A stretch of 64,000 nucleotides of DNA from Nitrospiria bacterium (GCA_041486115.1 JBGPKT010000001.1:405-64404), one strand, 5' to 3'; shown: positions 539 through 63,575, numbered from the stretch's first letter. The notes: generated by a model from the letters alone, not told the origin. Numbers and translations: made by a program.

Positions 539-1672
539 TCAAAGGGTTGACCTGCATAACTTGACGATCTGTTCGGCCATATCATGAATCGAAAAAACCT
601 GATCAATCAAACCCAGCTGAACCGGCACCCTCGGCATTCCATAGACCACGGCGGTTTCTTCGGATTCGGCCAGAGCAACCCCGCCGTACGATTTAATGGT
701 TTTGATCCCTCTGGATCCATCGTTCCCCATTCCGGTCAGGATGACCCCCAGAGTCCCTTTTCCGTATATTTCCGCAATGGAATCCATCGTCTTATCCACC
801 GAAGGAACATAACGGTCCTCGTCGGTTTTCGATTCCAGATAAAGTTTATTGGCCTCAAACCCTTTTTTTGCGATCAGATTGTACCCTCCAGGAGCCACAT
901 AAATCTGCCCCGGCCATAGCCGGTCTCCCTCCTCAGCCTCCTTCACCCTTAACCTCCCCAGAGAATCGAGTCTCTGGGCAAATGAATGGGTAAAATTAGG
1001 GGGCATATGCTGAACAATGACAATCGGAACCTGCAAGTCGGAGGGAAGGGACGATATGATCATTTGAATAGCCGCAGGCCCCCCCGTCGAAGCGCCGATG
1101 ACGACGATGTCGGCCTGTCCGGTCTTTGGACCGACCGATCCAAAGGTCGGAAATTCGCCATCTTTTCTTATTCTTGTTTTTTCCTGGAGACGCACCTCCG
1201 GTTTTGTCTCAGTCGCCCGGGGGGAATGAGGGGTGGAAAAAATCGCGACCTGTTTTTTGATCCTGTCCCGGGGGATTTTACTGATAATTTCAATTTTACC
1301 GATCAGCTCTTCTTTGACGTTTAACAGGTCTACCGACGCATTATGCCCCGGTTTGGCAACAAAATCCAACGCACCCAGTTCAAGCGCTTTGAAGACATTC
1401 TGGCTCTCGCTCCGGGAACTGACAATAAGAACCGGCAGAGGATGGGTCGCCATGAGCCATTTCAAAAACGTAAAACCATTCATTTCAGGCATTTCGATAT
1501 CGAGCGTGATCATATCCGGTTTCTTTTTTTCAAGGAATTTCATCGCTTCCAGGCCGCCCGACACAGATCCGATCACTTCGATGTGGGGCGTTTGGGAAAT
1601 CATCTGGGAAATGGCATGCCGCGCAAACGGGGAATCGTCCACGACCAGGACTTTAATCTTTTCCTGTTTCAA
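539..1672 (-). CDS. cheB: protein-glutamate methylesterase/glutaminase CheB (REC + methylesterase)
   Basis: N-terminal REC (KVLVVDDS...DIEMP). Esterase motifs GASTGGP, QHMP, GMGNDG. TTG start overlaps the cheR stop. Linker carries the repeat-derived FPTFGSVGPKTG. Confidence 0.9.
   Translation of the reverse strand: MKQEKIKVLVVDDSPFARHAISQMISQTPHIEVIGSVSGGLEAMKFLEKKKPDMITLDIEMPEMNGFTFLKWLMATHPLPVLIVSSRSESQNVFKALELGALDFVAKPGHNASVDLLNVKEELIGKIEIISKIPRDRIKKQVAIFSTPHSPRATETKPEVRLQEKTRIRKDGEFPTFGSVGPKTGQADIVVIGASTGGPAAIQMIISSLPSDLQVPIVIVQHMPPNFTHSFAQRLDSLGRLRVKEAEEGDRLWPGQIYVAPGGYNLIAKKGFEANKLYLESKTDEDRYVPSVDKTMDSIAEIYGKGTLGVILTGMGNDGSRGIKTIKSYGGVALAESEETAVVYGMPRVPVQLGLIDQVFSIHDMAEQIVKLCRSTL
1117..1153 (+). 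repeat. dispersed modular repeat copy A (one unit + short tail), in frame in the cheB linker
   Basis: GTCCGGTCTTTGGACCGACCGATCCAAAGGTCGGAAA; the reverse complement translates FPTFGSVGPKTG within CheB. Confidence 0.85.
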
Positions 1673-2646
1673 GAAGCGCTCCTTTCCGGCTTTCCGACCT
1701 GCGGAATGCTTCCGCGGAACGATAGGTCCGCGATCGGACCTAAGACCGGATCGAACGGACGATCTAAAGACCGGACCCGTTTTTGGTAGACCATATCTTT
1801 CTTAAAATGCCTTAACTCAAACTCCGGCGTAATATAACTCAGCGATTCGGAGTGGCCCAGCAGCAAAAATCCATCGGGCTTTAATTTTTCGCGAAAGGTC
1901 GCAATCACTTTCTTTCTCACCTCGAGATTGAAATAAATAATCACATTTCTGCAAAAGATGACATCCATCTCGTTCAAGAAAAACATCTTTTGGGGCTCAA
2001 TCAAATTGACCTGAAAAAAGCTTACTTTTTCCTTCACGGGATCCTTGATTTTATATCCGTTATTTTCTTTAATAAAGTACTTGTCGATATACGCCTGCGG
2101 TACGCCCCGGAACGAGTTATCGGTGTAAACCCCCTTCCGCGCAAACTGAAGGACATTGGGAGAAATATCGGTTGCAAAAATTTCGCAGCGCCAGTCTTTT
2201 AACTCCGGTTTTTCGAGAATGAGCATCGATATGGTATAGGCTTCTTCTCCGGTGGAACATCCGGCCGACCAGATCCGGATTGTTTTATGAGACTTGTTCC
2301 TCTCCATAATTTCAGCAAGAATCTCATCCGAAAAGGTGTCCAGCTGCAGGGTTTCCCGGAAAAAATAGGTTTCGTGGATCGTCAATAAATCGACCACTCG
2401 GGACAGCTCGGTCTCTTTGTCCTTGTCATACTTCAAGAAATAATAATAGTCTTTAAAGTCAGAAAACTGTTTTTTTGATACGGACTCTTTTAACCGGGAG
2501 CGGATGAACGCTTTGGATTGTTCATCCATGACCACCCCCGCTTTTTGAAACATCAGGTCCTGAAACAGCTTGAAGGTGTCATCGCTAAAAACCAGTTTCT
2601 GTTCGGTGTCGAGTATCTCCTGAGGAGTTCGCATGTTCGCCATCAA
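1669..2646 (-). CDS. cheR: chemotaxis protein methyltransferase CheR
   Basis: SAM-MTase motif IWSAGCSTGEE and CheR N-terminal helical domain. About 35 aa C-terminal tail derives from repeat copy B. Confidence 0.9.
   Translation of the reverse strand: MMANMRTPQEILDTEQKLVFSDDTFKLFQDLMFQKAGVVMDEQSKAFIRSRLKESVSKKQFSDFKDYYYFLKYDKDKETELSRVVDLLTIHETYFFRETLQLDTFSDEILAEIMERNKSHKTIRIWSAGCSTGEEAYTISMLILEKPELKDWRCEIFATDISPNVLQFARKGVYTDNSFRGVPQAYIDKYFIKENNGYKIKDPVKEKVSFFQVNLIEPQKMFFLNEMDVIFCRNVIIYFNLEVRKKVIATFREKLKPDGFLLLGHSESLSYITPEFELRHFKKDMVYQKRVRSLDRPFDPVLGPIADLSFRGSIPQVGKPERSAS
1688..1775 (-). repeat. dispersed modular repeat copy B (degenerate, 2-3 units), forms the cheR 3' end
   Basis: GGCTTTCCGACCTGCGGA...GCGATCGGACCTAAGACCGGATCGAACGGACGATCTAAAGACCGGA aligns by eye to copies C and E. 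Encodes SLDRPFDPVLGPIADLSFRGSIPQVGKP. Confidence 0.55.
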
Positions 2647-4652: not shown

Positions 4653-5513
4653 TCAAGGGTTACAGTTATTTTTTATCATTTGCTTTTTACGATCGACAAA
4701 ATCCTGAAGCGCATCCCTCAGGTAATTTGTCTTTTCCCGGATTTCTTTGGAGACCCTTCCCTGATAAAGTTTTTCCGCTTCGGCCATATCCTCTTTCAAT
4801 AACTCTTCGACATTCCCGTTTTCGATTCCCTCTTCAATCGTCTTTTGATTGTAAAGCGCGATATCCGAGACGATCAGACGGGCAAACCGTTTCGCCTCTT
4901 CATGCCGGACCGCCTCCTCAGGTGGAATACCGGGCTCTTTTTGCGGGGGACTCAGGGGCACGGGCGCAGCGGCTGTTTCTGCCGTCGTTTCTGGCTGAAG
5001 AACGGGTTGAGCGACCGGCTCCAGAGAGAATTCTACCGGCTCCTGAGGCGGCGGCAGACTGACGGGCGCCGACAACACTTCGGCCGCGGGCGCCGAAGTC
5101 GCATTGACCGCTCCGCCGGAAGGCGCTATCTCCGGAGAAACCTCTCCCAGAATTTTCCTCAGCTTGACAACCATCTGGTCATGGATGTGATGTCTTTCAA
5201 TATAATCATCGGCTCCATAAAGCGACTGCGGCTCCCTTTTATAGCGGGCCTTATCATAAATAGACGACACCAGAACCACTCCGGTGCTTTTTAAATGAGA
5301 GCTTTTTTTTATAATCTCGCAGATTTCAAAACCCAGGACCTGAGGAAGCGCGACATCCAGAAAGGCCGCATGGGGATGTTCCCTGTCTAAAATAGACAAA
5401 GCTTCTTTTCCCGTTCCTGCCAGGAACACCTCATACCCGGCCTCGGCCAGTATTTCTTTCATGATATCCTGAGTCGCTTCTCCGTCTACCGCAACGAGAA
5501 TTTTTTGGCTCAT
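4653..5513 (-). CDS. response regulator: REC + Pro/Ala-rich linker + uncharacterised C-terminal helical domain
   Basis: REC fold (KILVAVDGE...FLDVALP), linker PAAEVLSAPVSLPPPQEP..., C-terminal EEAKRFARLIVSDIALYNQKTIEEG. Confidence 0.8.
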   Translation of the reverse strand: MSQKILVAVDGEATQDIMKEILAEAGYEVFLAGTGKEALSILDREHPHAAFLDVALPQVLGFEICEIIKKSSHLKSTGVVLVSSIYDKARYKREPQSLYGADDYIERHHIHDQMVVKLRKILGEVSPEIAPSGGAVNATSAPAAEVLSAPVSLPPPQEPVEFSLEPVAQPVLQPETTAETAAAPVPLSPPQKEPGIPPEEAVRHEEAKRFARLIVSDIALYNQKTIEEGIENGNVEELLKEDMAEAEKLYQGRVSKEIREKTNYLRDALQDFVDRKKQMIKNNCNP

Positions 5514-5987: not shown

Positions 5988-6005
5988 ACAGACAATTCCT
6001 TTTCA

Positions 6006-6076
6006 CCTGTCCGACCTTCCGACCCATGGATCGGTCGGTTCAAAAACCGAATGGACCAGTCGATCCAAAGACCGGA
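6006..6076 (-). repeat. dispersed modular repeat copy C (tail + two units), intergenic mcp-cheW
   Basis: CCTGTCCGACCTTCCGACCCATGGATCGGTCGGTTCAAAAACCGAATGGACCAGTCGATCCAAAGACCGGA; ends 1 nt before the mcp stop codon (6077-6079). Confidence 0.85.
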
Positions 6077-7849
6077 TCACACCTTGATTTTAGAAAACTC
6101 TGCCATTAATAAATCAGCCCGCGCGACCAGCTGCCGGACGGTCTCCATCAGCTCATGCCCGACCTGGTCATTGGATTGGGCGGCTTTTTTGATCTCCAGG
6201 ATGGCCTTTCCGGAAACCTCCTGTTCGGTCCTCTGGACATCAATGGCCTTCATCATTTCCTGAATCTGCGAATTGACATGTTCCGCCGCCAGCGTAATCT
6301 GACGGCTTCCCTGAAGCTGTTCCGCGGTGGAATTCCGCACTTTGCCGGTGATATCCCTCATTTTCTCGGTGGCGCTCATGATCTGTCCCCCCCCTTTGGC
6401 CTGCTCCGTTGTCGCGCGGACGACCTCCCGGGCATTGAGGGTGATTTTTTCCATTGAAAGCTTGACCTGTCCAATTTCATTGACCTGGTTCACCGCAACC
6501 TCCGCGATTTTTCTGGCCATGTCGGCGGAATTCTTTGAGCTTTCAAGGATTTTTCCCACGGCGTCCCCGGCGGCAAGCGACAGGCGCATCCCTTCCTCCA
6601 CGCTTTCATACCCGATTTGAATTGAGGCAACGGCATCTTTTGTTTCTGTCTGAACGTCGCCGATCAACTGAGAAATCTCATTGGTCGAGGCCGAAGTCCG
6701 GTCTGCGAGCTTTTTGATCTCTTCCGCGACCACGGCAAATCCTTTTCCCTGATCCCCGGCCTGGGCCGCAAGTATCGCGGCATTCAAAGCAAGCAAATTC
6801 GTCTGCTTCGTCACCTCCTTGATGACGGTCAGGATTTTACCGATATCCTCCGAGCTTTTTCCCAACCGGTGAATGACCTCCGACGATTTTTCTACGGTGG
6901 TTTTTATTTTTTTCATGCCATCAATGGTTTTAACGATCGCCCGGACGCCGAGATCGTGAGCGTCCGCGCTGACCTTTTCCGACACCTCGGCGGCGCTTTT
7001 CGCGATGGTTTCGACCTCTCTGACAGAAGCGTCAATCAAGTCTACCGCCGCGGCCGTTTCCTGGGCCGTCTGAGAAAGATGCTCGACGTTTTCGGCAACC
7101 TCTTTGATGGAGGAGGTCATTTCAATGATGGAAGAAGAGGTCGTATCCACAGCAACAGCTAACTCCGCCGTCTGGCCCGATATTTCCCGTATCGTTGTCC
7201 CCATTTCCAAAATGGACGACGACGTCGCGTCCGTGGCATTGCAGAGCATATTGACGCCTTCGGAGATCGACTTAACGGAAGCTCCCGTCTGAAGCGCGGA
7301 AGCGGAGGTTCTTTCCGAAACTTCTGTCTGCATCGAAGCGCTCCGGGTCGCTTTTTCCGCCGAGGATTGAATTTTAGACGAAGCGCTTGAAATATCGTTC
7401 GAGGCGTCATGCATCCGGAGTAACATTCCCTTGATATGATCGATCATCTGATTGAGAGATTCTCCCAGCAGACTCAGTTCATCGTTGGTCCGAACCGAAA
7501 ATGTCGCGGTAAAATCACCGCTGGAAATCATCGAAGCCGTCGCCGACATTTCTTTCAAAGGCCGGATCAGCCTTTTTAAAAGCATAAAGGCCACGGTAAT
7601 CCCCAGCAGGATTAAAAATACCGTTGTCCCGATATGGATCCAGAGGATATGGCTGATTTTGTCATCCGTTGATAAGGAGGTGTTCTCGATTTCCCCTTCA
7701 ATCATCAATTTTGACGATAGGACTAAAATGGGACCGGCGATCATAAACATCCAGATGATATGAAAAATAAAACGCCCCGCAAGCGTTTTTGTTTTTAAAA
7801 TCGTAGGCATCATAATACTATTCCATCCTCTATCTGAAATTTTTCGCAT
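6077..7849 (-). CDS. methyl-accepting chemotaxis protein (2 TM, HAMP, MCP signalling domain)
   Basis: Conserved hairpin [37 protein letters not shown]; [13 protein letters not shown]; two N-terminal TM helices. Confidence 0.9.
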
Positions 7850-7860
7850 GCCTTCCGGGA

Positions 7861-8760
7861 TCAGACCCTGGCAATTTGTTCAACTTCCTCTTTAATCACG
7901 CCGATCACCCGGGGAATAAAAAGGAGAATCACCAGCCGCTCTCTAAAGCGGGTGATGCCCCTGATCAACTCCTGGCCATTTTGGCTGAAAAGTGGAGGAG
8001 AAGGCTGAATGTCGCTTTCCTTGATTTTAATCACCTCCGTCACCTCATCGACAAACAGGCCCAGAATTCCCTCGTCAATTTGAATAATGATAATCCGTTT
8101 AAGAGCCTCGTCCGTCTCTTCCCTCATTTCCCGATTTTCAGACTGAATAGGGGTCAGCTTGTTTTTTAAATTGAAAACCGGAATAATCACCCCTCGTAAA
8201 GAGATAATGCCCATCAGGCCCGGCGTACTCCTCGGAATCGCCGTCATACCTATCGGACGGATAATTTCCTTGATCTGGCTGACCGGAATGGCATATTCCT
8301 CCCGGTTAAGAGAAAGCCCCAGAAATTCTATAGCTTCCTCCATCAACGGGGCTTGCGTCTCGATTCCCGCTGGCGGAGCCAGACGGCTCCCCCCTCTCTC
8401 GCCCGCAGGACTCGCCGGGCCAATATTTTCAACGGAAGGGTTTGGCGGATTAGCCGGATTCTCCGCAGCTCCGTTTGGAGGGGCTTGCGTCGCCCCCCCC
8501 ACCGGCAGAGCCGGATGGAGCCCCCCCTTCTCGCTCGCCTTGCTCGCTGGGTCAATCTCAGTTGAAGGGGAAGCGCTCTCCGCTTTCATCTCGTCCCGCG
8601 CCTGAGAACCTCCCGCTGTCGTCATCGCCGGTTCAGGCGGAACGGGCCTGGTCGCGCCGGGAACCTTCAAATGCGGTGCCGCTCCCGCCTTTTTGGTTTT
8701 TTTTCGAACCGGAGACGCGGTTTTTCGGGAGTTTGCTTTTCTTTTTTCGCCTTTTTTCAT
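7861..8760 (-). CDS. CheW-like domain protein with about 130 aa Pro/Ala-rich N-terminal low-complexity region
   Basis: C-terminal CheW domain ([14 protein letters not shown]...VIIPVFNLK). N-terminus is K/P/A-rich. 4-nt overlap with the cheA stop. Confidence 0.75.
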
Positions 8761-10796
8761 ATCTTTTTATTTTTCTTTAAAACCTCGTCGATTAACATCG
8801 CGACATCCAGGACAAGAATAATTTTTTTATTCCCCAGTTCACAGGCCCCCGCTATTCCGGGAAGGGTGCCCAAAACTCCCCCCAGAGATTTAATGACAAT
8901 TTCCTGCTGGCCCAAAAGGTGTTCTACGACCAGTCCGATCCGCTTTTCCGCGGCGCCGATCACAATCACATAAAGAGACCCCTGATTGGAGTCCGCGGTC
9001 TCCAGCCGGAACAGCTCTTCCAGTCGCAAAAGAGAAATCGTCTGCTCCCTGAGTTGAATGACCTCCCTCCCGTCGACCGATTGGATGTCCTTCCGGTTCA
9101 CCATCAGACTTTCAGACACCGAGTTGATGGGGATCGCATAGGTGTTCCCCCCTATTTTAACGATCAGCGCCCGGATAATAATCAAGGTGATCGGAAGGGT
9201 AATAGAAAATTTCGCGCCCCTTCCGGGTTCCGATTCCACGCTCACCATTCCGGACATTTTGGCGATATTTTTTGCCACGACGTCCAGGCCGACTCCGCGG
9301 CCGGAAAGGTCTGTAATGGTTTTACTCGTACTGAACCCGGGGAGGAAAAGAAAATCAACAAGTTCTTTTCGGGAATATTCTTTCTTCGGGTCCGCCAGAT
9401 TTTTTTCAAGGGCTTTCTGATAGACCGCCGAAAGTTCAATGCCCTGACCATCATCTTCGACTTCAACAAGCACATGGTTCCCTTTTTGAAAAGCCCTCAA
9501 ATAAATATTTCCGGTTTCAGGCTTTCCGGCGGCGGCTCTTTCGTCCTTCGATTCAAGACCATGATCGATCGCATTTCGGATCAGATGCATGATAGGGTCC
9601 GCGATTGATTCAATCATCGACTTGTCGAGAGCGGTCTCTTCCCCTGAAATATGAATATTGACCGGTTTTTTTATCTCTCTTGAAATCTTTCTGACCATGC
9701 GGACAAACCGGTCGAAGATCTGGCCGATCGGGGTCATTCTGACCTGAATGAGGCTCTCCTGCAGCTCGCCAATTTTTCTGCCGATCCGCTCGAGGGTTTT
9801 CTGAAAATCGAGCCCCGTGTCGGAAAAGCTGTTCTTATCAATCAGCGCATTCCCCTGCTGTTGAATGACCGTTTTACTTAAAACAAGCTCTCCGACGATA
9901 TTCATCAGCACATCCAGTTTGGAAATATCCACCCGGACCGTCTGCGTCACGCTTTTGAGCGACTCAGAAGCTTCATCGTTGGACCCTGCCGGTCCGACCT
10001 GCGGATCGGTAGATCCAAAGACCGGAGCAAGAGGCCCCGCGGACTTCTCGATTTCCGAGATTTCGACGCTCTCTCCGGTCCATTTGACCTCCTTATGAAC
10101 CAGATCTTCTTTGGAAGCGATAATAATTTTGAACAGAATTCCCGCTCCGGGAGAAAGTCCCGATGCGGGGAGAGAAGTGATCACCTCGCCGTGGGGCTTA
10201 ATCTGTTCGAGCGTCCGGCCAAGATCCAGATCAAAAGACTCGATCTTATACTTCACCCGCATTTCAAATATACGCAGTCTGTTTTTAAGGTTTTCCTTCA
10301 AGCGGTGCGTTTCATATTCGGTAAAAGTTTTAAGTATTTCGGGGTCTATCCCCATCCCTTCGCCTACGGGAGCGGGCGCTTCTCCCTCCGAACCCTGAAC
10401 GAGCATCTTTTCAATCCGGCTGATCATCGGGGCGGGGTCGATGGGCTTTTTTTCAGGCGTATTCATTGATTGAAGCATCGTCCTGAGGAGCTGCGTCGCC
10501 TCCGTTAACAGGCTGATCATGGGCTCGGTCACGTTGAGTTTTCCGAGACGAAGCTTGTCTAAAAGATCTTCCATGTGATGGGAAAGGGAAGAAAGCGATA
10601 TCAAGCCGATCATTCCGGCCGCCCCCTTAAGGGTATGGATCGCCCTGAACATCGAATGAACCGTATTCGGAGACGACCCTGAAGCGGAATTCCGCTCGGT
10701 ATCCAGGGCATAAAGGTTCTGCTCCATGCTTTCGATTATTTCTTCGGCTTCGGCCATAAAATCTTTAAGGAGACCGTCTTGTTTTTTAACAGGCAT
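8757..10796 (-). CDS. cheA: chemotaxis histidine kinase CheA
   Basis: Hpt motif HTLKGAAG, HATPase motifs DDGQGI and GRGVGLD, C-terminal CheW-like domain. Linker holds repeat copy D (APVFGSTDPQVGPAG). Confidence 0.92.
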   Translation of the reverse strand: MPVKKQDGLLKDFMAEAEEIIESMEQNLYALDTERNSASGSSPNTVHSMFRAIHTLKGAAGMIGLISLSSLSHHMEDLLDKLRLGKLNVTEPMISLLTEATQLLRTMLQSMNTPEKKPIDPAPMISRIEKMLVQGSEGEAPAPVGEGMGIDPEILKTFTEYETHRLKENLKNRLRIFEMRVKYKIESFDLDLGRTLEQIKPHGEVITSLPASGLSPGAGILFKIIIASKEDLVHKEVKWTGESVEISEIEKSAGPLAPVFGSTDPQVGPAGSNDEASESLKSVTQTVRVDISKLDVLMNIVGELVLSKTVIQQQGNALIDKNSFSDTGLDFQKTLERIGRKIGELQESLIQVRMTPIGQIFDRFVRMVRKISREIKKPVNIHISGEETALDKSMIESIADPIMHLIRNAIDHGLESKDERAAAGKPETGNIYLRAFQKGNHVLVEVEDDGQGIELSAVYQKALEKNLADPKKEYSRKELVDFLFLPGFSTSKTITDLSGRGVGLDVVAKNIAKMSGMVSVESEPGRGAKFSITLPITLIIIRALIVKIGGNTYAIPINSVSESLMVNRKDIQSVDGREVIQLREQTISLLRLEELFRLETADSNQGSLYVIVIGAAEKRIGLVVEHLLGQQEIVIKSLGGVLGTLPGIAGACELGNKKIILVLDVAMLIDEVLKKNKKI
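9989..10026 (-). repeat. dispersed modular repeat copy D (short tail + one unit), in frame in the cheA linker
   Basis: CCGGTCCGACCTGCGGATCGGTAGATCCAAAGACCGGA. Confidence 0.8.
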
Positions 10797-12857: not shown

Positions 12858-12930
12858 CTGATTTTATGAGATGACTTTCAAGGTCTCTTATTTAAAAAAG
12901 GGTGCTTTTAATTCTCAGCTCAAGAGGTCT

Positions 12931-12975
12931 CCGGATTCGCACAAATCCGTCATACCCGCGAAAGCGGGTATCCAG
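12931..12975 (+). repeat. REP-like hairpin element (CCCGCGAAAGCGGG core)
   Basis: CGGATTCGCACAAATCCG stem-loop followed by CATACCCGCGAAAGCGGGTATCCAG. Same family as 28960-28991, in the opposite orientation. Confidence 0.7.
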
Positions 12976-13015
12976 TCATATAAGTTATTTCTATCATGAA
13001 CAGTCTAAAAGATAA

Positions 13016-17338: not shown

Positions 17339-17877
17339 CTTTTTTTTATTTTCCTGTCCGACTTTCCGACCTTTGGATCGGTCGGTTTAATGACCGAATG
17401 GATCGGTCGGTCCAAAAACCGGAACAGAGAGGCCATTTCGACGGCAGAAAGAGCGGCTTCTCTCCCTTTATTGTCTTTTCCTTCAGACCGTCTGAGCGCC
17501 TGCTTCAGATGATCGACCGTCAGCACGCCGAACAGAACAGGGACGCCGGTTTTTAACCCGACCTCCATGATACCACGGGAGGCCTCCGAACAAATATAGT
17601 CGAAATGAGGGGTATCGCCCCGGATCACGGCGCCGAGACAGATCAGCGCGTCGACGATGCGGCATTGAATGACCCGGGCGGCGGCCTGAGGAATTTCAAA
17701 AGCCCCCGGGACTTCAAAGATCAGAATATGTTTCTCCTCCGTCCCGCATTCCTTTAATCCCTCGACGGCCCCCTCCAGTAATTTTTCGGTGACCCGGGGG
17801 TTAAAACGGCTGACCACTATTCCAAACTTCAAGCCCTTGCCGGAAAGCCCTATTTTCTTCTCAACCGGAGTTCTCAC
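17335..17877 (-). CDS. ribH: 6,7-dimethyl-8-ribityllumazine synthase with about 29-aa repeat-encoded C-terminal tail
   Basis: FGIVVSRFN..., GAFEIP, VIRGDTPHFDYI motifs. The tail RFLDRPIHSVIKPTDPKVGKSDRKIKKR comes from repeat copy E. Confidence 0.9.
   Translation of the reverse strand: MRTPVEKKIGLSGKGLKFGIVVSRFNPRVTEKLLEGAVEGLKECGTEEKHILIFEVPGAFEIPQAAARVIQCRIVDALICLGAVIRGDTPHFDYICSEASRGIMEVGLKTGVPVLFGVLTVDHLKQALRRSEGKDNKGREAALSAVEMASLFRFLDRPIHSVIKPTDPKVGKSDRKIKKR
17353..17423 (-). repeat. dispersed modular repeat copy E (tail + two units), forms the ribH 3' end
   Basis: CCTGTCCGACTTTCCGACCTTTGGATCGGTCGGTTTAATGACCGAATGGATCGGTCGGTCCAAAAACCGGA. Confidence 0.85.
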
Positions 17878-17941: not shown

Positions 17942-19144
17942 CTATACTTTTTTTAGAAGATGGCCGAGCTTGTCTTTTTTTGTTTTTAAATAGCGGAGAA
18001 TCTGCTGATGCGGCGCAATTTCGATGGGGACCCTTTCTACAATTTTTAATCCGAATCCTTCGAGCCCCACGACCTTTTTAGGATTATTGGTCAATAAGCG
18101 GATATTTTTCAAACCGAGCGCAAGAAGTATCTGAGCGCCAATTCCATAATCTCTCAGGTCAGCTTTAAAACCGAGTTCTAAATTGGCTTCAACGGTATCA
18201 AGCCCCTCTTCCTGAAGCTTATAGGCCTTAATCTTGTTCACGAGGCCGATTCCCCTGCCTTCCTGGTGCATATAGAGAATGAGCCCTTTTCCTTCTTTTT
18301 CGATGATTTCCATGGCTTTATGGAGCTGGTCTCCGCATTCGCAGCGCCGGGACCCAAAGACATCTCCGGTCAGACAACCCGAGTGAATTCTCGTCAGAAC
18401 GGGCTCCTCGCCTGCAACTTCCCCTTTGACCAGGGCCACATGAGACTCATGATCGATATCATTTTCGAATATAACCGCTTTAAAATCCCCATAGTCGGTC
18501 GGAAGATGCGAGTCGGCCACCCGCCTGACCAGGACCTCTCCCTTGACCCTGAATTCAATTAAATCTTTAATGGTAATGATCTTGAGGTGATGCTTCCTGG
18601 AAAATTCCATCAGCTCGGGGACTCTCGCCATCGTTCCGTCCTCGTTTAAAATTTCACAGATTACCCCGGCGGGATACAACCCGGCGAGCCTTGCCAGATC
18701 GACCGACCCCTCAGTATGCCCGGATCGTTTTAAAACTCCCCCTTTCTGAGATTTTAAGGGAAAGATATGGCCGGGCCTGCCAAAATCGGAGGGATGGGCT
18801 TTGGGATGGAGGGCTTGCAGAATCGTATTAGAACGGTCGGCGGCGGAAATGCCGGTGGTGTTCCCTTTCTTCGCGTCAATGGACACCGTAAAGGCGGTCC
18901 CCGTCGGCGCCGTATTTTCCGGGACCATGGGAGCAAGCTGGAGCTCCTCGGCCCTTTCGGGAGTCAAAGCAAGGCAGATCAGGCCTCTTCCATATTTAGC
19001 CATGAAATTAATCGCTTCCGGCGTGGTTTGATTGGCCGCCAGGACGAGGTCTCCCTCATTTTCCCGGTCTTCATCGTCGATCAGAATGATCATCTTTCCT
19101 TGTTTGATATCGGCAACGGCCTCCTGAATGGTATTAAAGGTCAC
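17942..19144 (-). CDS. ribBA: bifunctional 3,4-dihydroxy-2-butanone-4-phosphate synthase / GTP cyclohydrolase II
   Basis: 400 aa. [10 protein letters not shown] (RibB) and CECGDQL...EGRGIGL (RibA). GTG start with AAGGAG SD. Confidence 0.92.
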
Positions 19145-19260
19145 TTTTTCACCGGCTCCTTATTCAACACGTGTTCAAACCTTTTAACGGACTCAAGAAT
19201 AACTCTTTTAAATATATAAGAACGGGAGACGAAAATCAACATCGCGTTGTCCCCCTAAAA

Positions 19261-19374
19261 CAGAGATAGGATTTGCAACCCCTTGTTTTGCCTGTCATCG
19301 CGAGCACCCATAGGGTGCGTGGCGATCTCGGTTCAAGATGGCGAGATTGCTTCGCTTCGCTCGCAATGACAACT
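19261..19374 (+). repeat. about 114-nt REP/MITE-like palindromic element, copy 1
   Basis: CAGAGATAGGATTTGCAAC...TGTCATCGCGAGCAC...GCGATCTCGG...CGAGATTGC...GCTCGCAATGACAACT, with nested inverted repeats. Near-identical copy at 36131-36243. Confidence 0.85.
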
Positions 19375-19414
19375 GGTTGTCCCCCCCGGTCCTTTTGAAT
19401 CGGCACGAGGTCCG

Positions 19415-22087
19415 TTATTGACAGTGGGTGTCGATGGCCTGGAGAAGTTTCTCTTTGATTTCGCGGAGGCGTTCGGGGCGGATAATTTTTTCGTTTTGGC
19501 TGTCTTTGACGTAAAAAACATCAACAATCTGGTCGAGGCGGGTGGCAATTTTGGCGGAATAGACCGACAACCCGAGCTCAAAAAAGGCTTTCGTGATCAC
19601 ATAGAGAAGCCCCTGCTTATCCGAAGCGAAAATATCGATAACCGTACATTCATCAGAAGCATCGTTATCAATCTCCACAATCGCCGGAATCAGTTGAATG
19701 CTCTCCGCCATCTGCGGATCGCTTGTCATTCTCGACTGGAATAAGGCCTCTACGTTCTTTTCACCCGTCAGGACCTCCCGGATATTCTTTTTGACCCTTG
19801 CCCAACGTTCCTCAAAATGAATGTCCTCCAGATCGTAATCATAAACCTGAAAAGAATCGGCCACAACCCCTTTGAGCGTGGTATGGACCTGGGCTCCCGC
19901 AATCTGTAAACCATTGGCGGAAAGGGATCCCGATATTTTTGAAAAGATACCCGGCGTAATCGAATCATAGGTATAAACGGTCACTTCAGCGAGCCCTCTT
20001 TCCCTGTTCCGGTAAACGTCAACCAGCACCGGATCGGATTGAAGGGCGCTGATTCGTAACAGATAGGTCAGAATCTTCGAAGGTTCCATGGCAAAGAGGA
20101 TCCGGCGGGGGAGGGACTGGAGCATTTCTCTGATCTGCTCCGGGGAATAGGTTTTCTCTAATTCTTTAGTCAGAAATTTAAAAATGCTCTCTTCTTTCTC
20201 CTTTTCGGAGCTTTGCGTTTTTGTTCCCGTCAAAGCTTCCATCGTTTTTTGATAAAGTTCGAGCAGAAGGCTCTGTTTCCAGTCGGTCCAGGCATCGGGA
20301 CCGACCCCCTTGATATCGGAGTAGGTCACGAGGCAGAGCATTTTCAGCGTTTCCGGCTGGCCGGCCTCCCGGGCAAACTGGAGCAGGACTTTTTCGTCGG
20401 ACAGATCGCGGCGAAGCGCAATATGGGACATTAAAAGGTGATGTCTGACCAGAAAGACCACCAGCCCCCCCTCGTCCTCCGAAAGTCCGAGGGTTTCAAT
20501 CACCTTTTTTGTAATTTCCACGCCCCATTCGGTATGGTCCCCTCCCCTTCCTTTCCCGATGTCATGAAGCAGAAGGGACAGATGGAGCAGGTCTTTCCGC
20601 TTGATTTCTTTGTAGATCTGGCCAAGAAGGCCTTCTTTTTTTGCCAGAGCCTCTGCTTCTTCAATACATTTGATTAAATGCTCATCCACCGTATATTTAT
20701 GATACTGGTTATACTGCATCAGCCGGTTGACATGGCCGAACTCGGAGATATAGGTATCGAGAACGCGGGTTTGATGCATCAACCGGAGCAGCGGCGCGAT
20801 TCGCCCCGGCCGGCTTAAAATCTCCATGAATGTTTTATGGCATTCCGGAGATCGGAAAAAAGAGACATCCCGGAATTCCACGCTTCTTCTGAGGAGATCG
20901 ACCGCCTCTTCGGACATCGGGAGGCGGCGGGCTTGAGAGATCGAAAAAAGCTTTAAGACATATTCGCCGGAACTTAAAAATAACGCCCGTTTCTTTTCAT
21001 CCACCCGGATCTCATAAAGGGTCGCGATAAAACAGGGAGACACCCTTTTAAAAATCATTTTATCCAGAACTTTCCGGGCCAGGGTGCGGGGAATCGTCTT
21101 CCGGATAAAACGGGAGGATATCTGATGAATCGCCGTCGAGTGCCTGTAATATTGCTGCATGAACTGTTCGACTCCGAGCAGGTGAGGCTGGTCATTGTAC
21201 TTAAAAAACTCCGAAAGACGTTTTTGTTCCCGAAATGTCAAGATATCGGAGCTTTTCCCGGCATGGAAATGCATCTCGTTCCGGACGATCCAGAGAAAGT
21301 TTTGCGCTTCGGTGAGGGCGTTATACTCATGAGCGGTCAGATGCCCCTGTTTGTGAAGTTCAACCAGCGAATAGGCGCCATAACAGGTAAACGCCACCCA
21401 CTGCAAATAATGGATGTCCCTTAACCCCCCCTCGCTCCTTTTAATATTGGGCTCAAGTATATAAACCGTCGAACCGAACTTCCCCCGCTCTTTTTTGATC
21501 TGTTCCAGGAGCTCGCTGACATACCGGCTTTTGTCCCGTTCAACTACTTTTTGATAATAAATCCGCTGGAATTCCTGAAATAAATATTCACTCCCGGTCA
21601 GAAGCCTCGCCTCCATCAGCGACGTCCGGGCGGTCAGGTCATGAAACCCGATTTGAAGCGCGTCCTCAACAGTCCGGATGGAGTGCCCTATCGTAAACTC
21701 AAGGTCCCACAGCTGATAGAGCATTTCCCGTGAAATTTCTTCCGCCGCCTGTTTGCATTCGGGCTGGTAGAGAAACATGATATCCATGTCGGAAAAAGGA
21801 TTGAGTTCTCTCCTCCCGTATCCTCCGACGGCCACCAGGGAGATCCCTTCCTGAATATATTGCGACGAGGTCATTTCGTATTGAATCACCGCCTTGCGGT
21901 ATAGCCCGGTGAGGAGTTCGTCGGTCAGGCCGGTCAGCTCCCGGACAATGTGCCTTCCGGAGGCCCCCTTCTTGTGGAGTTCATAAAGGCTGAAGCGGCG
22001 GGTCTGGAGATACTCTTTAAGATTTTGAGTTCGTGTTTGGCGGTCTGCCGATTGATCGAGGATGTCTTTGAGAGATAACGAGTTCAT
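19415..22087 (-). CDS. glnD: bifunctional [protein-PII] uridylyltransferase / uridylyl-removing enzyme
   Basis: 890 aa: nucleotidyltransferase domain, HD domain (LLLHDIGKG), two C-terminal ACT domains. Confidence 0.9.
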   Translation of the reverse strand: MNSLSLKDILDQSADRQTRTQNLKEYLQTRRFSLYELHKKGASGRHIVRELTGLTDELLTGLYRKAVIQYEMTSSQYIQEGISLVAVGGYGRRELNPFSDMDIMFLYQPECKQAAEEISREMLYQLWDLEFTIGHSIRTVEDALQIGFHDLTARTSLMEARLLTGSEYLFQEFQRIYYQKVVERDKSRYVSELLEQIKKERGKFGSTVYILEPNIKRSEGGLRDIHYLQWVAFTCYGAYSLVELHKQGHLTAHEYNALTEAQNFLWIVRNEMHFHAGKSSDILTFREQKRLSEFFKYNDQPHLLGVEQFMQQYYRHSTAIHQISSRFIRKTIPRTLARKVLDKMIFKRVSPCFIATLYEIRVDEKKRALFLSSGEYVLKLFSISQARRLPMSEEAVDLLRRSVEFRDVSFFRSPECHKTFMEILSRPGRIAPLLRLMHQTRVLDTYISEFGHVNRLMQYNQYHKYTVDEHLIKCIEEAEALAKKEGLLGQIYKEIKRKDLLHLSLLLHDIGKGRGGDHTEWGVEITKKVIETLGLSEDEGGLVVFLVRHHLLMSHIALRRDLSDEKVLLQFAREAGQPETLKMLCLVTYSDIKGVGPDAWTDWKQSLLLELYQKTMEALTGTKTQSSEKEKEESIFKFLTKELEKTYSPEQIREMLQSLPRRILFAMEPSKILTYLLRISALQSDPVLVDVYRNRERGLAEVTVYTYDSITPGIFSKISGSLSANGLQIAGAQVHTTLKGVVADSFQVYDYDLEDIHFEERWARVKKNIREVLTGEKNVEALFQSRMTSDPQMAESIQLIPAIVEIDNDASDECTVIDIFASDKQGLLYVITKAFFELGLSVYSAKIATRLDQIVDVFYVKDSQNEKIIRPERLREIKEKLLQAIDTHCQ

Positions 22088-28424: not shown

Positions 28425-28945
28425 TTCAGATCCGGATCTAAATGCCTGATTTCAGCGACCGGGATCACCAGGGTATTGATCCTTTTAAGGAAGTCCATCA
28501 TTTTAACTTCTCTTTTCTTGAGAAGCTTTTCCATGGACGGAAGAACGCCCCTGGAATAAACGCCATGAAGCGGATGCAGTCCGTCCGGGGATTTAAGCAC
28601 CACGGCATCAAAATGGTTAAGTTTTTCGGTTAAAAACCGGATCACTTCCGGATTCAAAAACGGCATATCGCAGGCAACCGCAAAAACCGGCCCTTTTGAC
28701 TGGAAAAGACCGGTATAAATGCCCCCCATCGGCCCACCGTCCGGATAAATATCGACGTAAACAGGAACGCCAAACGATAAAAATGGCTCCCTCTTTTTGG
28801 CAATGATCATCCTGTCGTTAAAAAGGGGGATCAAAGTGTCCAGGGTCCGTTGAATCAGGCTTTTCCCTTTAAATTCCATAAACGCCTTATCTTTTCCCAT
28901 CCGGAGGCTTTCGCCGCCGGCCAGAACAATAGCCGTCATCTCCAT
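28367..28945 (-). CDS. mobA: molybdenum cofactor guanylyltransferase MobA
   Basis: MEMTAIVLAGGESLRMGKDK is the MobA signature. Start placed at an internal ATG of the 273-aa ORF. Confidence 0.8.
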   Translation of the reverse strand: MEMTAIVLAGGESLRMGKDKAFMEFKGKSLIQRTLDTLIPLFNDRMIIAKKREPFLSFGVPVYVDIYPDGGPMGGIYTGLFQSKGPVFAVACDMPFLNPEVIRFLTEKLNHFDAVVLKSPDGLHPLHGVYSRGVLPSMEKLLKKREVKMMDFLKRINTLVIPVAEIRHLDPDLKCLTNINTPEEMKVIRRAN

Positions 28946-35836: not shown

Positions 35837-35959
35837 CTATTTTTATTTGAGGGCCTTCGAGACTACGCTCTCAATGTCCCCAATCCCTAACATGAGTGCC
35901 TAATGCATTGGATGGCCGGATTAAAACAATAATTTCTTTCATTTATCTTGAACTATAGA

Positions 35960-35975: not shown

Positions 35976-36130
35976 ATTAATTAATTAACTTATCCTGCTG
36001 ATTTCAAACGAAAATTTTAAAAACATCCAGGATAGGGACTTTAAAAATCATTCAAAAATGTAGGTCAATTTGGAAGGTACGACAATTTTGTCTGAATGGC
36101 ATCATTCGGTTTTTCTGATTGTCCCGAGAA

Positions 36131-36243
36131 CAGAGATATGATTTGCAACTTCTTGTTTCGCCTGTCATCGCGAGCACCATAGGGTGCGTGGCGATCTCGG
36201 TTCAAGAAGGCGAGATTGCTTCCCTTCGCTCGCAATGACAACT
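36131..36243 (+). repeat. about 114-nt REP/MITE-like palindromic element, copy 2
   Basis: Same orientation as 19261-19374. By manual alignment, 7 differences including one 1-nt indel. Confidence 0.85.
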
Positions 36244-51349: not shown

Positions 51350-51581
51350 TCAATGACTCCTTCATTCATGATGGATTCGATGCTCAAGCGTATACGAAGG
51401 GACAAGCAAAAAGGGACGATAGGAGTTCTTCACCTTTCTTAAAGGCAAAAGGTCCGAGTCATCCATCGTATTGATCCAGGGATAGGCGCTCTGTTCAAGG
51501 CAAAACTCCCTGAAGATAAATTGAGCAAGCCCCCTGACTGAAAGATCGGTCACTTCCGCCAGGACCGCCAGCGTCTTTTCA

Positions 51582-51656
51582 TTCCGGTCTTGAAACCGAC
51601 CGATCCATCCGGTCTTTGGACCGACCGATCCACAGGTCGGAAGGTCGGGCGACAAG
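51582..51656 (+). repeat. dispersed modular repeat copy F (two units + tail), in frame in the DUF2156 gene
   Basis: TTCCGGTCTTGAAACCGACCGATCCATCCGGTCTTTGGACCGACCGATCCACAGGTCGGAAGGTCGGGCGACAAG; encodes LSPDLPTCGSVGPKTGWIGRFQDRN. Confidence 0.85.
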
Positions 51657-52281
51657 TCCGCCCCCATCAGGTATCCCTTGATTTCAGAGCCGACCGTGAC
51701 CACTCGCCCGATCAGACCAAGGTCCTGATACTCCCGCATCATTCTAAAATGGGCGGAGCGGCTATCTTCGAGCAAATGAATTTCATACTCCCCCTCCCCT
51801 GTTTTGATCCCTTTTTTCTTTCGCTCTTTCCATTGATCATACAGCGCCAGACAACCAGGAACATCCGGAGGGACAAAGGGACGGTATTCAAACGGGTGGT
51901 TTTTTACAAACTGATTGACTCCCCATCTTTTTTCTTTATATCGGTCCCCTTTTAAACCGCTCAAGGCGGTTCTCTCGTAGAGATAATCCCAGGATTTGAG
52001 GGAAGCGGTAAGCTCGCGGGAAGCGACTTCAGCTATTTCATCCAGAGTGACATTTTCGATCCGGCTCAATGACCGATTCTTATTGAGCTGATCCATCACT
52101 TCAAATGCCCGGGGAATCGACAATTTTAAAGGAGTGTCTCCCAGCGGCGGGACCGGCATATACCAGATGGCGTCATAAGAGGCCAGAAGGTAAACGGTAT
52201 CGCCCTCCCGGAAGAGGTGATATTCAAAAAAATCTTTCCAGACCCAGATGGCCGCAAAAGAGCAGGCCGAAAGAAGCCGAG

Positions 52282-52291
52282 TTTTTTTTTT
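52282..52291. repeat. T10/A10 homopolymer at the frameshift site
   Basis: Counted directly: ten T on the plus strand. Confidence 0.9.
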
Positions 52292-52343: not shown

Positions 52344-52997
52344 TCAGGATGCCCCTTCCGGTCTTGCGTTCGACCGATCCAAAGGCCGGACAAGAAGTTT
52401 AAGAAGGATGACATCCTCCTGGAAAGGCCCGATAAGCTCCTGATTTTTTTGAAGCATCGATTGAATCCGGGGGGACTCCAGAATTTGAATCAGCTCTTCG
52501 CCATACTTCCGGATGGCCGGACTGTTTGAAACCTCCTGGATATAGGGGCATTTGGTATCGATCCCCACTGTTACATGATCATCTTTTTTCATCAACACAA
52601 AAGGATAGATCTGACAATCAAAAGGTCTGCCTTCATAGATTGAACATTTGTGCGACAGAGGGTCAAAAGCGGGGCAGAGACATCCTCCGTTATGGCCCGG
52701 GCTTTCAACCGCTTCGGGAAAAGGGATTAATCTGATCCTCCCCGATTTTCCATCCGGTCCGGTCTTTGGATCGACGGATCCATCCGGTCTTTGGACCGAC
52801 CGATCCACAGGTCGGAAGGTCGGAAAAAAATCCAGCGGGAGCCCCGTCACCAGAGCGTTCTTCACCTCCTCCGCGGTAAAATAAGGAGCTAAAGGGGTGT
52901 CCGCTTCCGGGAACCGACAGCAGATATCGCATTTTAAACAGAGTTCAGAGGGAACCAACTGAACGAGAGGGGAATCGGCCTTGACAGTTTTCATCAC
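52344..52997 (-). CDS. YkgJ-family Cys-cluster (CxxCxxCC) protein carrying two repeat copies
   Basis: CLKCDICCR motif and later CPAF/C..C residues. Internal insert RPVDRSVQRPDGSVDPKTGPDG and C-terminal tail RPLDRSNARPEGAS are both repeat-derived. Confidence 0.6.
   Translation of the reverse strand: MMKTVKADSPLVQLVPSELCLKCDICCRFPEADTPLAPYFTAEEVKNALVTGLPLDFFPTFRPVDRSVQRPDGSVDPKTGPDGKSGRIRLIPFPEAVESPGHNGGCLCPAFDPLSHKCSIYEGRPFDCQIYPFVLMKKDDHVTVGIDTKCPYIQEVSNSPAIRKYGEELIQILESPRIQSMLQKNQELIGPFQEDVILLKLLVRPLDRSNARPEGAS
52356..52394 (+). repeat. dispersed modular repeat copy G (one degenerate unit + short tail), 3' end of the YkgJ-like gene
   Basis: TTCCGGTCTTGCGTTCGACCGATCCAAAGGCCGGACAAG. Confidence 0.7.
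52748..52824 (+). repeat. dispersed modular repeat copy H (two units + tail), internal to the YkgJ-like gene
   Basis: TTCCATCCGGTCCGGTCTTTGGATCGACGGATCCATCCGGTCTTTGGACCGACCGATCCACAGGTCGGAAGGTCGGAAA. Confidence 0.85.
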
Positions 52998-61367: not shown

Positions 61368-61395
61368 GGCGTTATTCCTGAACGGCAGGGACGCT

Positions 61396-62367: not shown

Positions 62368-63575
62368 CTAGGATTAAACCCGTTTATGAGGGGCCCGCCC
62401 CCGATCAGATTCTGATAGGCTTTTTCCATCTGACGAACGATCTGATTCCATCTGAAGTGCTCTTCAGCCTTTTTAAAACCGGCAAGACCGTAGGCACTTG
62501 CTACATCGCGATGATCGAGAAGGAACCCGACCTTTTCTTTCAAGTCGCCGGAATCTCCCGGCCGGACTAGAAGACCATTCACCCGATCTTCAACCACTGT
62601 TCTTACCCCCGGAAGAGATGAGCCGACAACCGGTTTTCCGCAGGCCATCGCCTCCAGCAGGACAATTCCAAACGCCTCAGACCGGTTGATGGATGGAAGG
62701 GCCGCAAGGTCGGCCAGGTTATAGTAGTCGGGAAGATCCTGATCGGCCACCCCGGTTATAAAAAGTACCCGATCCTCCAGGTTTTCTTTTTTAACCTCCT
62801 CGCGGTAAGCCGGAATCCTGTCTCCGTTTCCGACAATCAGGAGTTTAACTTCTTTCCGATTTAATTTCCCCACCGCTTCAATTAAAACCGAAACCCCTTT
62901 AAAATAATGGGCCCGGTCCAGCCCGCCCACAAATAACAAGACCTTGTCTTCGGGTAAAAGCTTTAACCGGTCCATCAATTTTTTATTTTTGTCTTTCGGG
63001 TAAAATTGCGAAGAGACCCCATAAGAGATTTCATAGCAAGGTTTTTTATCGAGAAACCGGGAGATCAGGCTGGTTTCGGCGTAATCACGGCTCGACACCA
63101 GAACCAGGTCGGATTGCCCGATCAATGAGGGGAGGATGCTTTTTCCGTATCCCTTAAAAAATAACTTGAGGGGCCCCTCGCCGATCACATCCATGTGATA
63201 ACTTAAAACAACCCTGGGAGGTTTGACAAACAGCCATTTCAACAAAAGGATCCACTCCGCACCCCCGAAAAATGGATAATGGAGATGAATAATATCATAA
63301 GAAGAAAGCTTCCAGAAAAGCTGAGGGGTCAATGCGGCGTTTCCATATTTCAGCCATGGGAGCAGGCGATGGACTTTAAATCCGGTTTCCGGTTCGATCG
63401 TCTCTGATCCTTTTCCATTTTGTGGTTCGGTTGATCCAAAAACCGGACCATAATCAGGCGTATATACCCCAATATCATGGCCGAGAAGAGAGAGTTCCCG
63501 GGCATAATGAAAGACGGCATTTCCGATTCCCCCGCGGTAAGGAGGGAAGGTCGAGACAATATGAGCAATCCTCAT
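62364..63575 (-). CDS. GT4-family glycosyltransferase with repeat-derived insert near the N-terminus
   Basis: EAFGIVLLEAMACGKPVV (E-x7-E). N-terminal loop GPVFGSTEPQNGKGSETIEPETG overlies repeat copy I. Confidence 0.85.
   Translation of the reverse strand: MRIAHIVSTFPPYRGGIGNAVFHYARELSLLGHDIGVYTPDYGPVFGSTEPQNGKGSETIEPETGFKVHRLLPWLKYGNAALTPQLFWKLSSYDIIHLHYPFFGGAEWILLLKWLFVKPPRVVLSYHMDVIGEGPLKLFFKGYGKSILPSLIGQSDLVLVSSRDYAETSLISRFLDKKPCYEISYGVSSQFYPKDKNKKLMDRLKLLPEDKVLLFVGGLDRAHYFKGVSVLIEAVGKLNRKEVKLLIVGNGDRIPAYREEVKKENLEDRVLFITGVADQDLPDYYNLADLAALPSINRSEAFGIVLLEAMACGKPVVGSSLPGVRTVVEDRVNGLLVRPGDSGDLKEKVGFLLDHRDVASAYGLAGFKKAEEHFRWNQIVRQMEKAYQNLIGGGPLINGFNPR
63381..63447 (-). repeat. dispersed modular repeat copy I (degenerate), in frame in the GT4 gene
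   Basis: The clear unit TGTGGTTCGGTTGATCCAAAAACCGGA (63421-63447) is preceded by the tail-like TCCGGTTTCCGGTTCGATCG. Confidence 0.5.

Follow-up and report, generated by a model that had tools for sequence, protein, structure and literature searches.

A 33-nt palindromic repeat family, probably mobile, in conserved genes of groundwater Nitrospirota

The DNA analysed here is a stretch of 64,000 nucleotides from a Nitrospiria bacterium (GCA_041486115.1, JBGPKT010000001.1:405-64404), referred to below as the window, and it is 99.6% identical to a contig of the metagenome-assembled genome (MAG) GCA_041490785.1. It consists of ordinary chromosomal DNA, with a che operon, purine and riboflavin genes, glnD/P-II/amt, molybdenum-cofactor and nitrate/nitrite genes, lysS, secDF, tgt and argS. 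Dispersed among these genes is a short palindromic repeat, of which an initial annotation, made from the sequence alone, had counted nine copies in both orientations. Count and orientations were confirmed. The 24-nt unit CCGGTCTTTGGACCGACCGATCCA has nine matches with three or fewer mismatches in the window against 0.00 expected from dinucleotide-preserving shuffles, and the tail AGGTCGGAAGGTCGG has six against 0.22 expected. Comparison of the window with itself recovered the same loci, at 83-97% nucleotide identity, and an nhmmer profile built from the units detected no additional strong copy in the window. A tail-like match at 38556 was considered as a tenth copy and rejected as a chance match within lysS. 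The copies are listed below; the strand is the element's own head-to-tail strand, ORF stands for open reading frame and MCP for methyl-accepting chemotaxis protein.

1119-1151, + strand, 33 nt: copy in the cheB linker
1685-1774, - strand, 90-nt compound: copy in the C-terminal tail of cheR
6010-6075, - strand, 66-nt nested dimer plus 8 tail-like bases at 6002-6009: copy in the MCP-cheW spacer
9993-10025, - strand, 33 nt: copy in the cheA linker
17357-17422, - strand, 66-nt nested dimer: copy in the C-terminal tail of ribH
51584-51649, + strand, 66-nt nested dimer: copy in the DUF2156/LPG_synthase_C ORF
52358-52390, + strand, 33 nt: copy at the CxxCxxCC/DUF2156 boundary
52759-52824, + strand, 66-nt nested dimer: copy inside the CxxCxxCC (YkgJ-like) ORF
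63414-63446, - strand, 33 nt, degenerate: copy in the N-terminal loop of a GT4 glycosyltransferase gene

Eight of the nine loci kept their place once the ends were refined. The ninth had been placed at 63381-63447, and there only 63414-63446 is element: the encoded GT4 protein has about 11 extra amino acids compared with nine orthologues (60-66% identity), so that it holds a single decayed 33-mer (residues 44-54, predicted peptide GPVFGSTEPQN), and 63381-63413 is native loop, also present in the orthologues.

When all copies are read from head to tail, the basic element is exactly 33 nt long and consists of a 25-nt head, CCGGTCTTTGGAYCGACCGATCCAN, and an 8-nt tail, AGGTCGGA. The existence of a common repeat had been recognized correctly, but the larger copies are not tandem units with a doubled tail, as first described; they are nested 33-mers. 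The 66-nt form has the order head1-head2-tail2-tail1, with a whole 33-mer nested in another between positions 25 and 26, and this parse is unique in that no other contiguous 33-mer can be taken from the 66-mers with a complete element remaining. A long form of 57 nt has an extra 24-nt hairpin module (CGCGGACAAATCGTTCCGCGCAAG-like) at the apex of the 33-mer. It was found in the window cheR copy, in the cheB and DUF420 genes of a related MAG and in one cheR allele from an SRA run, and the 90-nt compound of the window cheR gene is head1 followed by the 57-nt long form and tail1. The apical module was also seen outside canonical 33-mers, at 857-876 and 6257-6276 of L003 and at 5439-5458 and 7810-7829 of L010 (L numbers designate the loci examined together with the window, 183 kb in all), and may therefore be a separate mini-element of eight codons. 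One stray apical module (L010, about 7790-7850) lies between two inverted tail-like arms.

The 33-mer is an imperfect palindrome, and its single strand folds as one long hairpin or as two small ones. For 33-mers on the head-to-tail strand, RNA folding gave hairpins of -15.6 to -15.9 kcal/mol and z of about -2.6. The complementary strand reaches -12.3 kcal/mol; it folds more weakly because two G·U pairs of the stem turn into A·C mismatches. The long forms fold with z = -3.0 to -4.7. No named family had been recognized for the repeat, which agrees with the lack of an Rfam match in the window at the gathering threshold and with the absence of the element's longer strings from the literature searched.

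Eight of the nine window copies are located within ORFs, and the length of each of the eight is a multiple of three. The hosts named in the initial annotation were those identified by Pfam: CheB, CheR, CheA, RibH, an LPG_synthase_C/DUF2156 ORF, a CxxCxxCC ORF with two copies, and the GT4 glycosyltransferase. That different reading frames yield different peptides was equally borne out. In CheB the copy lies in the receiver-methylesterase linker, antisense to the gene, and encodes the predicted peptide PTFGSVGPKTG (residues 174-185); in CheA it lies in the linker preceding the dimerisation domain, in the sense orientation, with the predicted peptide PVFGSTDPQVG (residues 258-268). The cheR copy is just upstream of the cheB Shine-Dalgarno sequence, the ribH copy is just upstream of the nusB ribosome-binding region, and the copy in the MCP-cheW spacer begins directly after the MCP stop codon.

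The remaining window copies lie in the CxxCxxCC and DUF2156 ORFs (52344-52997 and 51362-52159, respectively). In all homologues retrieved (identity of 43% or less) these two are one fused protein of about 500 residues, and the homology of the DUF2156 ORF extends upstream of its first start codon. Both nested copies of this gene are antisense and appear as clean gaps of 22-23 residues against distant homologues. The one in the DUF2156 ORF covers residues 171-192 (gap of about 23 residues against homologue P0016), and the one in the CxxCxxCC ORF covers residues 58-80 (22-residue gap against P0016). In an AlphaFold2 model of the DUF2156 ORF, with a mean predicted local distance difference test (pLDDT) score of 88.8, the element segment is modelled as a loop joining two strands; its residues score 44-52 and their surroundings 86 or higher.

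The exact unit was found in only one other species among 185,579, each represented by one GTDB representative genome. This is the groundwater Nitrospirae MAG JACQBY01, in which 11 contigs carry the exact unit and which is about 88% identical to the window where the two overlap. Most of its copies are in ORFs. Single copies are found inside genes for a UvrD-like helicase, a tetratricopeptide repeat (TPR) protein, a histone-deacetylase-like enzyme, LptD, a DUF420 membrane protein and CheB, as the C-terminal tails of NadC and RuvC, and adjoining the ribosome-binding site of a cold-shock gene (csp). The cheB site orthologous to that of the window carries the 57-nt long form. The predominant subtype differs between the lineages, with GGATCG in JACQBY and GGACCG in the window. 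Taking the window and related copies listed together, 11 are in the sense and 8 in the antisense orientation relative to the host gene.

The sister clade JACQBW01 (~70% nucleotide identity) had no profile match in 15 kb syntenic with 5.5-20 kb of the window, and it is empty at ribH, cheA and the MCP-cheW spacer. The same peptides at the same sites in distant taxa would have pointed to an ancestral protein motif; instead, relatives at ~70% identity, and others more distant still, lack the segment at ribH, the MCP-cheW spacer, GT4, DUF2156 and CxxCxxCC. A 24-mer scan of viral contigs returned no match, and neither did one of the JGI metagenome contig set. The latter evidently does not cover these samples, since the exact unit is present in L014, which comes from JGI. 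An exhaustive search of 1.84 billion representative proteins with the dimer peptide encoded in the window also gave no match. In short-read MAGs, contigs end at or next to copies of the element: L006 and L008 at their ends (these are overlapping duplicates of one ruvC end), L012 at its start, and L020 at its end, 8 codons before the cheB copy. Contig ends of this kind are what a dispersed repeat would be expected to produce. The element breaks assemblies, and copy counts in short-read MAGs are therefore underestimates.

The presence and absence of the element was compared among orthologues grouped in protein clusters at 90% identity and then aligned at the DNA level. RibH proteins are 158, 165/169 or 180 residues long, CheR proteins 294, 304, 313 or 324, NadC proteins 284 or 295 (with decayed copies in some lineages), and RuvC proteins, which differ at the tail, 166 or 179. 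The deacetylase has 322 residues in JACQBY and 311 in six others, including a 311-residue protein that is 98% identical to that of JACQBY. At the DNA level, the empty ribH allele reads CTCTGTT|CAGGAAAATAAA, and the filled alleles have identical flanks around exactly 33 or 66 nt. The cheR orthologues carry 0, 33, 57 or 90 nt, of which 0, 57 and 90 were seen in DNA-level alignments. The insert inside the deacetylase gene is exactly 33 nt, the nadC alleles also differ by 33 nt, and the MCP-cheW spacer is empty in both L019 and L020, where it reads TTTGAT|AAGGAATTG. Target-site duplications, which had been suggested as something to look for, were absent from all five sites with a known empty allele (ribH, cheR, deacetylase, nadC and MCP-cheW). 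The junctions are ambiguous by 1 nt at ribH and by 5 nt (ACCGG) at nadC. As a control, eight clusters of element-free window genes were inspected, and they showed no length variation of 11 or 22 residues.

The closest comparisons come from ribH. Outside the element, the empty L013 and the filled L014 are 98.9% identical, and the filled L015 and the empty L016 are 97.4% identical; the two pairs are about 6% apart and the outgroup is empty. This pattern requires at least two further gains or seamless losses at one site. Near-identical genomes that differ in exact presence or absence at the same site indicate seamless excision or repeated insertion there. Older copies, such as those in nadC (P0116/P0117) and GT4, have decayed. 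The proposal that the repeat is mobile or recombinogenic DNA rather than a protein motif was therefore strengthened by the exact presence or absence of 33, 57, 66 or 90 nt in orthologues of at least 90% identity and by the use of five frames. Several orthologue sets had been suggested as places to look for clean indels, and these were found in ribH (0, 33 or 66 nt) and, as the insert of about 11 residues, in GT4, but not in cheA. The cheA copy is kept in an orthologue of 90% identity, and relatives at 70% identity lack the peptide, their linker being just as long but unrelated in sequence, so an indel cannot be shown at this site. For this hypervariable linker, the interpretation as a clean indel was rejected.

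In all 24 copies that were delimited correctly, the element is preceded by a T (position -1), and redelimiting the 25th, the window cheR copy, places a T before it as well. Four clear empty alleles already have this T, which makes it part of the target, and the alternative of counting it as a base of the element was rejected. The flanks have a weaker tendency towards YGKT|MARGAA. Empty sites read T|CAGG at ribH and cheR, T|AAGG at MCP-cheW and, on the element strand, T|AGGG at the deacetylase. At ribH, cheR, MCP-cheW, nadC and csp, the site and the Shine-Dalgarno region of the following gene coincide. Where genes are tightly packed, the upstream ORF has its stop codon downstream of this region, so that an insertion lengthens the ORF, which accounts for the C-terminal tails. 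The element's own sequence around positions 25 and 26 reads CCAN|AGG. Position 25 is a T in the outer copy of all five nested forms, whereas none of the 20 single and long-form copies listed has a T there, all of them having C or A. From this distribution, we infer that a change from C or A to T at position 25 turns the element into a target, in which case a second copy would enter at the CCAT|AGG site to give the head1-head2-tail2-tail1 dimer.

Every form of the element (33, 57, 66 or 90 nt) has a length divisible by three, the unit being equivalent to 11 codons, and the 33- and 66-nt consensus forms are free of stop codons in all six frames. Real genes make use of five of these frames. The predicted peptides, among them FPTFGSVGPK, SLDRPIHR and PVFGSTDPQVGPAGSNDEASESLK, are rich in Gly, Pro, Ser, Arg and Asp and are hydrophilic in every frame. 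The mean Kyte-Doolittle hydropathy over the six frames is -1.04 against -0.56 ± 0.22 for open shuffles, of which 1.3% are as low. Six-frame openness is rarer among 66-mers, at 1.1%. With an 11-codon, stop-free and hydrophilic unit, insertion into a loop, linker or terminus merely adds a flexible peptide and may persist. Length, openness and hydrophilicity would in this way account for the tolerance of the element in genes, and the hydrophilic openness could have evolved in the element or could simply be what let such a sequence spread through a genome dense in genes.

Taken together, these results make it very probable that the 33-mer and its derivatives form a lineage-restricted, recently active, non-autonomous family of palindromic mobile elements in groundwater Nitrospirota. 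A tentative proposal for its movement is mobilisation in trans by an HUH/Y1-type enzyme recognising folded single-stranded DNA ends, as in the systems formed by repetitive extragenic palindromic (REP) sequences and REP-associated tyrosine transposases (RAYTs) or in IS200/IS605. Such an enzyme would fit because of the hairpins, the lack of duplication, the insertion by a fixed base and the seamless empty sites.

Several observations count against this interpretation or parts of it. None of the 39 window ORFs scanned has a transposase Pfam domain, and phmmer searches of the ORFs of the 183 kb with IS200 TnpA and E. coli RAYT queries, which are a weak test, gave nothing below E = 0.28. The window copies show no strand bias, with 4 on the + and 5 on the - strand, although this is a small sample and the element comes close to being a palindrome. 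Since the GC skew of the window is uniformly negative, which suggests one replichore, and a strict lagging-strand single-strand mechanism would predict an orientation bias, this distribution speaks against the HUH/Y1 proposal. The target is weak past the T, and several 3′ flanks do not have AGG. Openness in six frames is unremarkable for a 33-mer, being found in 10-13% of shuffles or window 33-mers. Two features are not accounted for by pure cut-and-paste. One is the set of 8 extra nt at the MCP-cheW copy. The other is the occurrence of three substitutions within 9 nt of the deacetylase insertion, with one in the remaining ~170 nt; they could represent a conversion tract, a compensatory change or prior polymorphism. 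The three lie next to the head end of the insertion and are seen at 1847-1856 of L007 in comparison with L017, as ACAGAAAGA against AAAAAAGGA. Harmlessness has its own exception. Eight of nine copies are in ORFs, as had been stated, but the claim of an unbroken frame does not hold for the copy at 52358-52390, where the frame changes directly after the copy and the ORF stops 11 nt past it. The same CxxCxxCC/DUF2156 gene has a second frame change at a T10 run (52282-52291), and these changes could be due to a pseudogene, a real split or a sequencing error.

Other explanations were weighed against mobility as a non-autonomous element. A REP-like structural motif selected for a benefit to the host (mRNA stability, translational coupling or binding of a host protein), with the copies in ORFs as by-products, is compatible with mobility and would agree with the copies at gene ends by the next Shine-Dalgarno sequence (ribH-nusB, cheR-cheB, MCP-cheW, nadC-birA and upstream of csp), with the two G·U pairs on the head-to-tail strand and the stabler RNA fold there, and with similar roles proposed for REPs (PMC3733652). 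Nevertheless, the orientation of the copies relative to transcription is unbiased, they are dispensable in close relatives, the old ones decay and the hairpin is not followed by the T-run of a terminator, so that we consider selection of this kind an unlikely explanation. Spread without a dedicated transposase is decidedly unlikely. It would proceed by ectopic recombination, gene conversion or polymerase template-switching, using microhomologies (T/TC, AGG) and the hairpin as a stall site, and it could accommodate the substitutions clustered by the deacetylase junction, the ambiguous junctions of ribH and nadC and the absence of a transposase gene from the sequence examined. The lineage-specific GGATCG and GGACCG subtypes would be compatible with concerted evolution. 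However, the microhomologies are mostly of 0-1 nt, the boundaries of the insert agree to the single base among more than 20 unrelated sites, and exact, seamless empty alleles are found in two separate sub-lineages. Features of this kind are more characteristic of an enzyme that cleaves at defined positions.

Seamless empty sites also bear on copying through RNA, by reverse transcription or ligation of the hairpin RNA, as proposed for the GC clusters of yeast mitochondria. Their occurrence in sub-lineages that also have filled alleles needs excision, which a copy-only route does not provide; in addition, antisense copies are as common as sense copies and no reverse transcriptase was seen in the sequence examined. 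Thus, this route is very unlikely, even though most copies are in transcribed regions, one strand is favoured as RNA by its G·U pairs and there is an analogy with GC42 (PMC4478555). A conventional MITE (a miniature transposable element with inverted repeats), made of the two terminal inverted repeats left from an insertion sequence with a DDE transposase, appears highly improbable. The imperfect palindrome can be read as back-to-back inverted repeats of 15-16 nt and the 57-nt form has an internal segment, but 33 nt is below the usual size of a MITE, none of the five sites with a known empty allele has a target-site duplication and the 183 kb examined contain no parent insertion sequence with CCGGTCTTTGG... 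ends. A shared protein motif or low-complexity linker, to which the linker-like peptides might be ascribed, is almost certainly not the answer, given that the copies match as nucleotide sequences, that unrelated proteins use five different frames of this DNA and that it is also found between genes. The same can be said of an assembly artefact, as the alleles recur in independent assemblies (NCBI, JGI, ENA and Logan). CRISPR-like, intein-like and tandem protein-repeat readings were rejected as well; the copies are dispersed, identical at the DNA level and read in multiple frames, with no array or splicing motifs.

Besides the 33-mer, at least four further families of short dispersed repeats are present in the window, and three of these have members within ORFs. 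One consists of the hairpin ATACCCGC-GAAA-GCGGGTAT following CGTC and resembles CGTC-tagged REPs. Its copies are at 12923-12994 and 28947-29008, and others occur in L002, L005, L010, L011 and L016; at 28947-29008, where the repeat separates a Fis-type HTH_8 ORF from MobA, a single ORF of 273 residues (28367-29188) runs across it. A 72-nt G-rich repeat is located in the N-terminal low-complexity part of the CheW-like ORF at 7861-8760 (8479-8550 and 8348-8406), and it is also present at 1006-1444 of L019, 6910-6981 of L010 and 6202-6230 of L002, which include unrelated loci of the related MAG. Its copy number varies, with 313 residues against 299 in the orthologue and 260 in the sister clade. 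A repeat of ~75 nt is found at 34090-34161 inside a molybdopterin oxidoreductase ORF, where it encodes residues 559-582 between two domains (~26 extra residues compared with NapA), and, on the opposite strand, at 35841-35893 just upstream of that ORF. It is also present in L011, and one or two tandem copies occupy the ribBA-ribH spacer of the relatives (L013-L016), the window's own spacer having none. The fourth family, intergenic and MITE-looking, is a 122-nt repeat at 19253-19374 and 36123-36243, with 92.6% identity, a long hairpin and an RNA z-score of -4.1; a scan of 19140-19420 at an E-value threshold found no Rfam match to it. Upstream of ribBA, there was no sign of an FMN riboswitch. 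In the sister clade, a gene for a Peptidase_M17_N-like protein has a perfect tandem duplication of 102 nt (L022, 4225-4355).

Rickettsia and a small number of genomes rich in REPs are the classical setting for selfish DNA that lies in frame within conserved genes. The Nitrospirota lineage described here provides empty, single, nested and long-form alleles that are exact to the base among genomes with 97-99% identity, so that junctions, target choice and effects on proteins (tails, linkers and loops) can be read directly. The alleles could also be tracked in existing series of groundwater metagenomes. The element has practical consequences too, since it breaks MAG assemblies at contig ends and produces spurious C-terminal extensions and gene fusions in annotation, and the added segments of 11-30 residues could mislead orthology and domain calls. 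A broader idea, which we regard as doubtful, is that the element evolved to live in coding sequence as a fixed 11-codon, six-frame-open, hydrophilic and self-targeting unit, moved by an enzyme or mechanism not yet described for REPs (one with a single-base target, nested integration and no GTAG/CGTC tag), in a lineage that is not known to be intracellular and whose genes have been colonised by several unrelated short-repeat families. If this were true, the syndrome known from Rickettsia would occur outside the setting of that genus.

Rickettsia palindromic elements (RPEs) were the system to which the repeat had been likened. That likeness holds for the in-frame behaviour, and the nearest analogues also include intragenic REPs (PMC3733652). 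According to the summary of Ogata et al. 2000 in PMC10969869, RPEs are palindromic and in frame within genes, with about 150 bp in RPE-1 and one conserved peptide for each RPE. The element shares with them the nature of palindromic selfish DNA with many in-frame copies in unrelated conserved genes at places compatible with the fold, the restriction to one lineage and the coexistence of several families in one genome. It is set apart from RPEs, as these are described, by its 33 nt and the use of five of six frames, and this size and many-frame use make it unlike RPE-1. The host is a groundwater Nitrospirota MAG lineage that is neither Rickettsiales nor known to be intracellular, and the features documented for this element include nesting, an obligate T on the 5′ side and, between genomes that are nearly identical, exact empty alleles.

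Intragenic REPs of the GTAG and CGTC superfamilies, including RPE-4 and RPE-6 of R. conorii and those of Opitutus terrae, add 10-30 residues to proteins, UvrD-type helicases among them (Di Nocera et al. 2013, PMC3733652). Like these, the element belongs to the class of imperfect palindromes of 20-40 nt, single or grouped, that are found at the 3′ ends of ORFs and inside them; a UvrD-type helicase as host and G·T pairs in the stem are further points in common. However, neither GTAG nor CGTC occurs in the 33-mer on either strand, which places it outside both superfamilies, and its conserved flank is just the T at -1. Its multimers are nested direct copies, whereas REPs form head-to-head or tail-to-tail dimers (known as BIMEs or REPINs), and its copies are mostly in ORFs, whereas REPs are mostly intergenic. 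With respect to the REPtron, a RAYT flanked by REPs, no RAYT was found among the 39 window ORFs scanned with Pfam or, with the IS200 TnpA and E. coli RAYT queries, a weak test, in the 183 kb.

REP/REPIN-RAYT and IS200/IS605 elements move by 'peel and paste', without duplication and with insertion beside a fixed short sequence (PMC8266576, PMC6006769). Ends defined by hairpins, no target duplication, a fixed adjoining sequence (in this case one base) and seamless donor sites are found here as well, and by analogy this is the mechanism that the element most plausibly works like. It differs in having no GTAG guide or CT cleavage site, no strand bias among the nine window copies and a single T as target. 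The GC clusters of yeast mitochondria, such as GC42, are mobile, as are the fungal double-hairpin elements for which PMC4478555 cites Paquin et al. 2000. These hairpins and double hairpins of ~30-45 nt, with a short purine target (AG), single copies and arrays, and presence or absence within a species, recall the present element; in contrast to it, they are organellar, mostly intergenic and flanked by a duplicated AG, whereas the element is chromosomal in a bacterium, causes no duplication and is mostly in ORFs.

Bacterial MITEs known in frame, such as QMITE1 of Coxiella (PMC5896051) and the Anabaena MITEs and the ERIC sequences as cited in PMC10969869, are also small non-autonomous repeats able to fuse in frame with host ORFs. 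They are 70-300 bp long, have terminal inverted repeats and target duplications and are only occasionally found in ORFs; given the lack of duplication and a length of only 33 nt, the element is not a classical MITE. Seen beside these systems, it belongs to a kind already known and is not a new category. What is new here is the base-exact allelic series of empty, single, nested and long forms, an 11-codon unit whose six frames are all open and hydrophilic, the nesting of copies in one another at a target defined by one base, and the setting in uncultured groundwater Nitrospirota.

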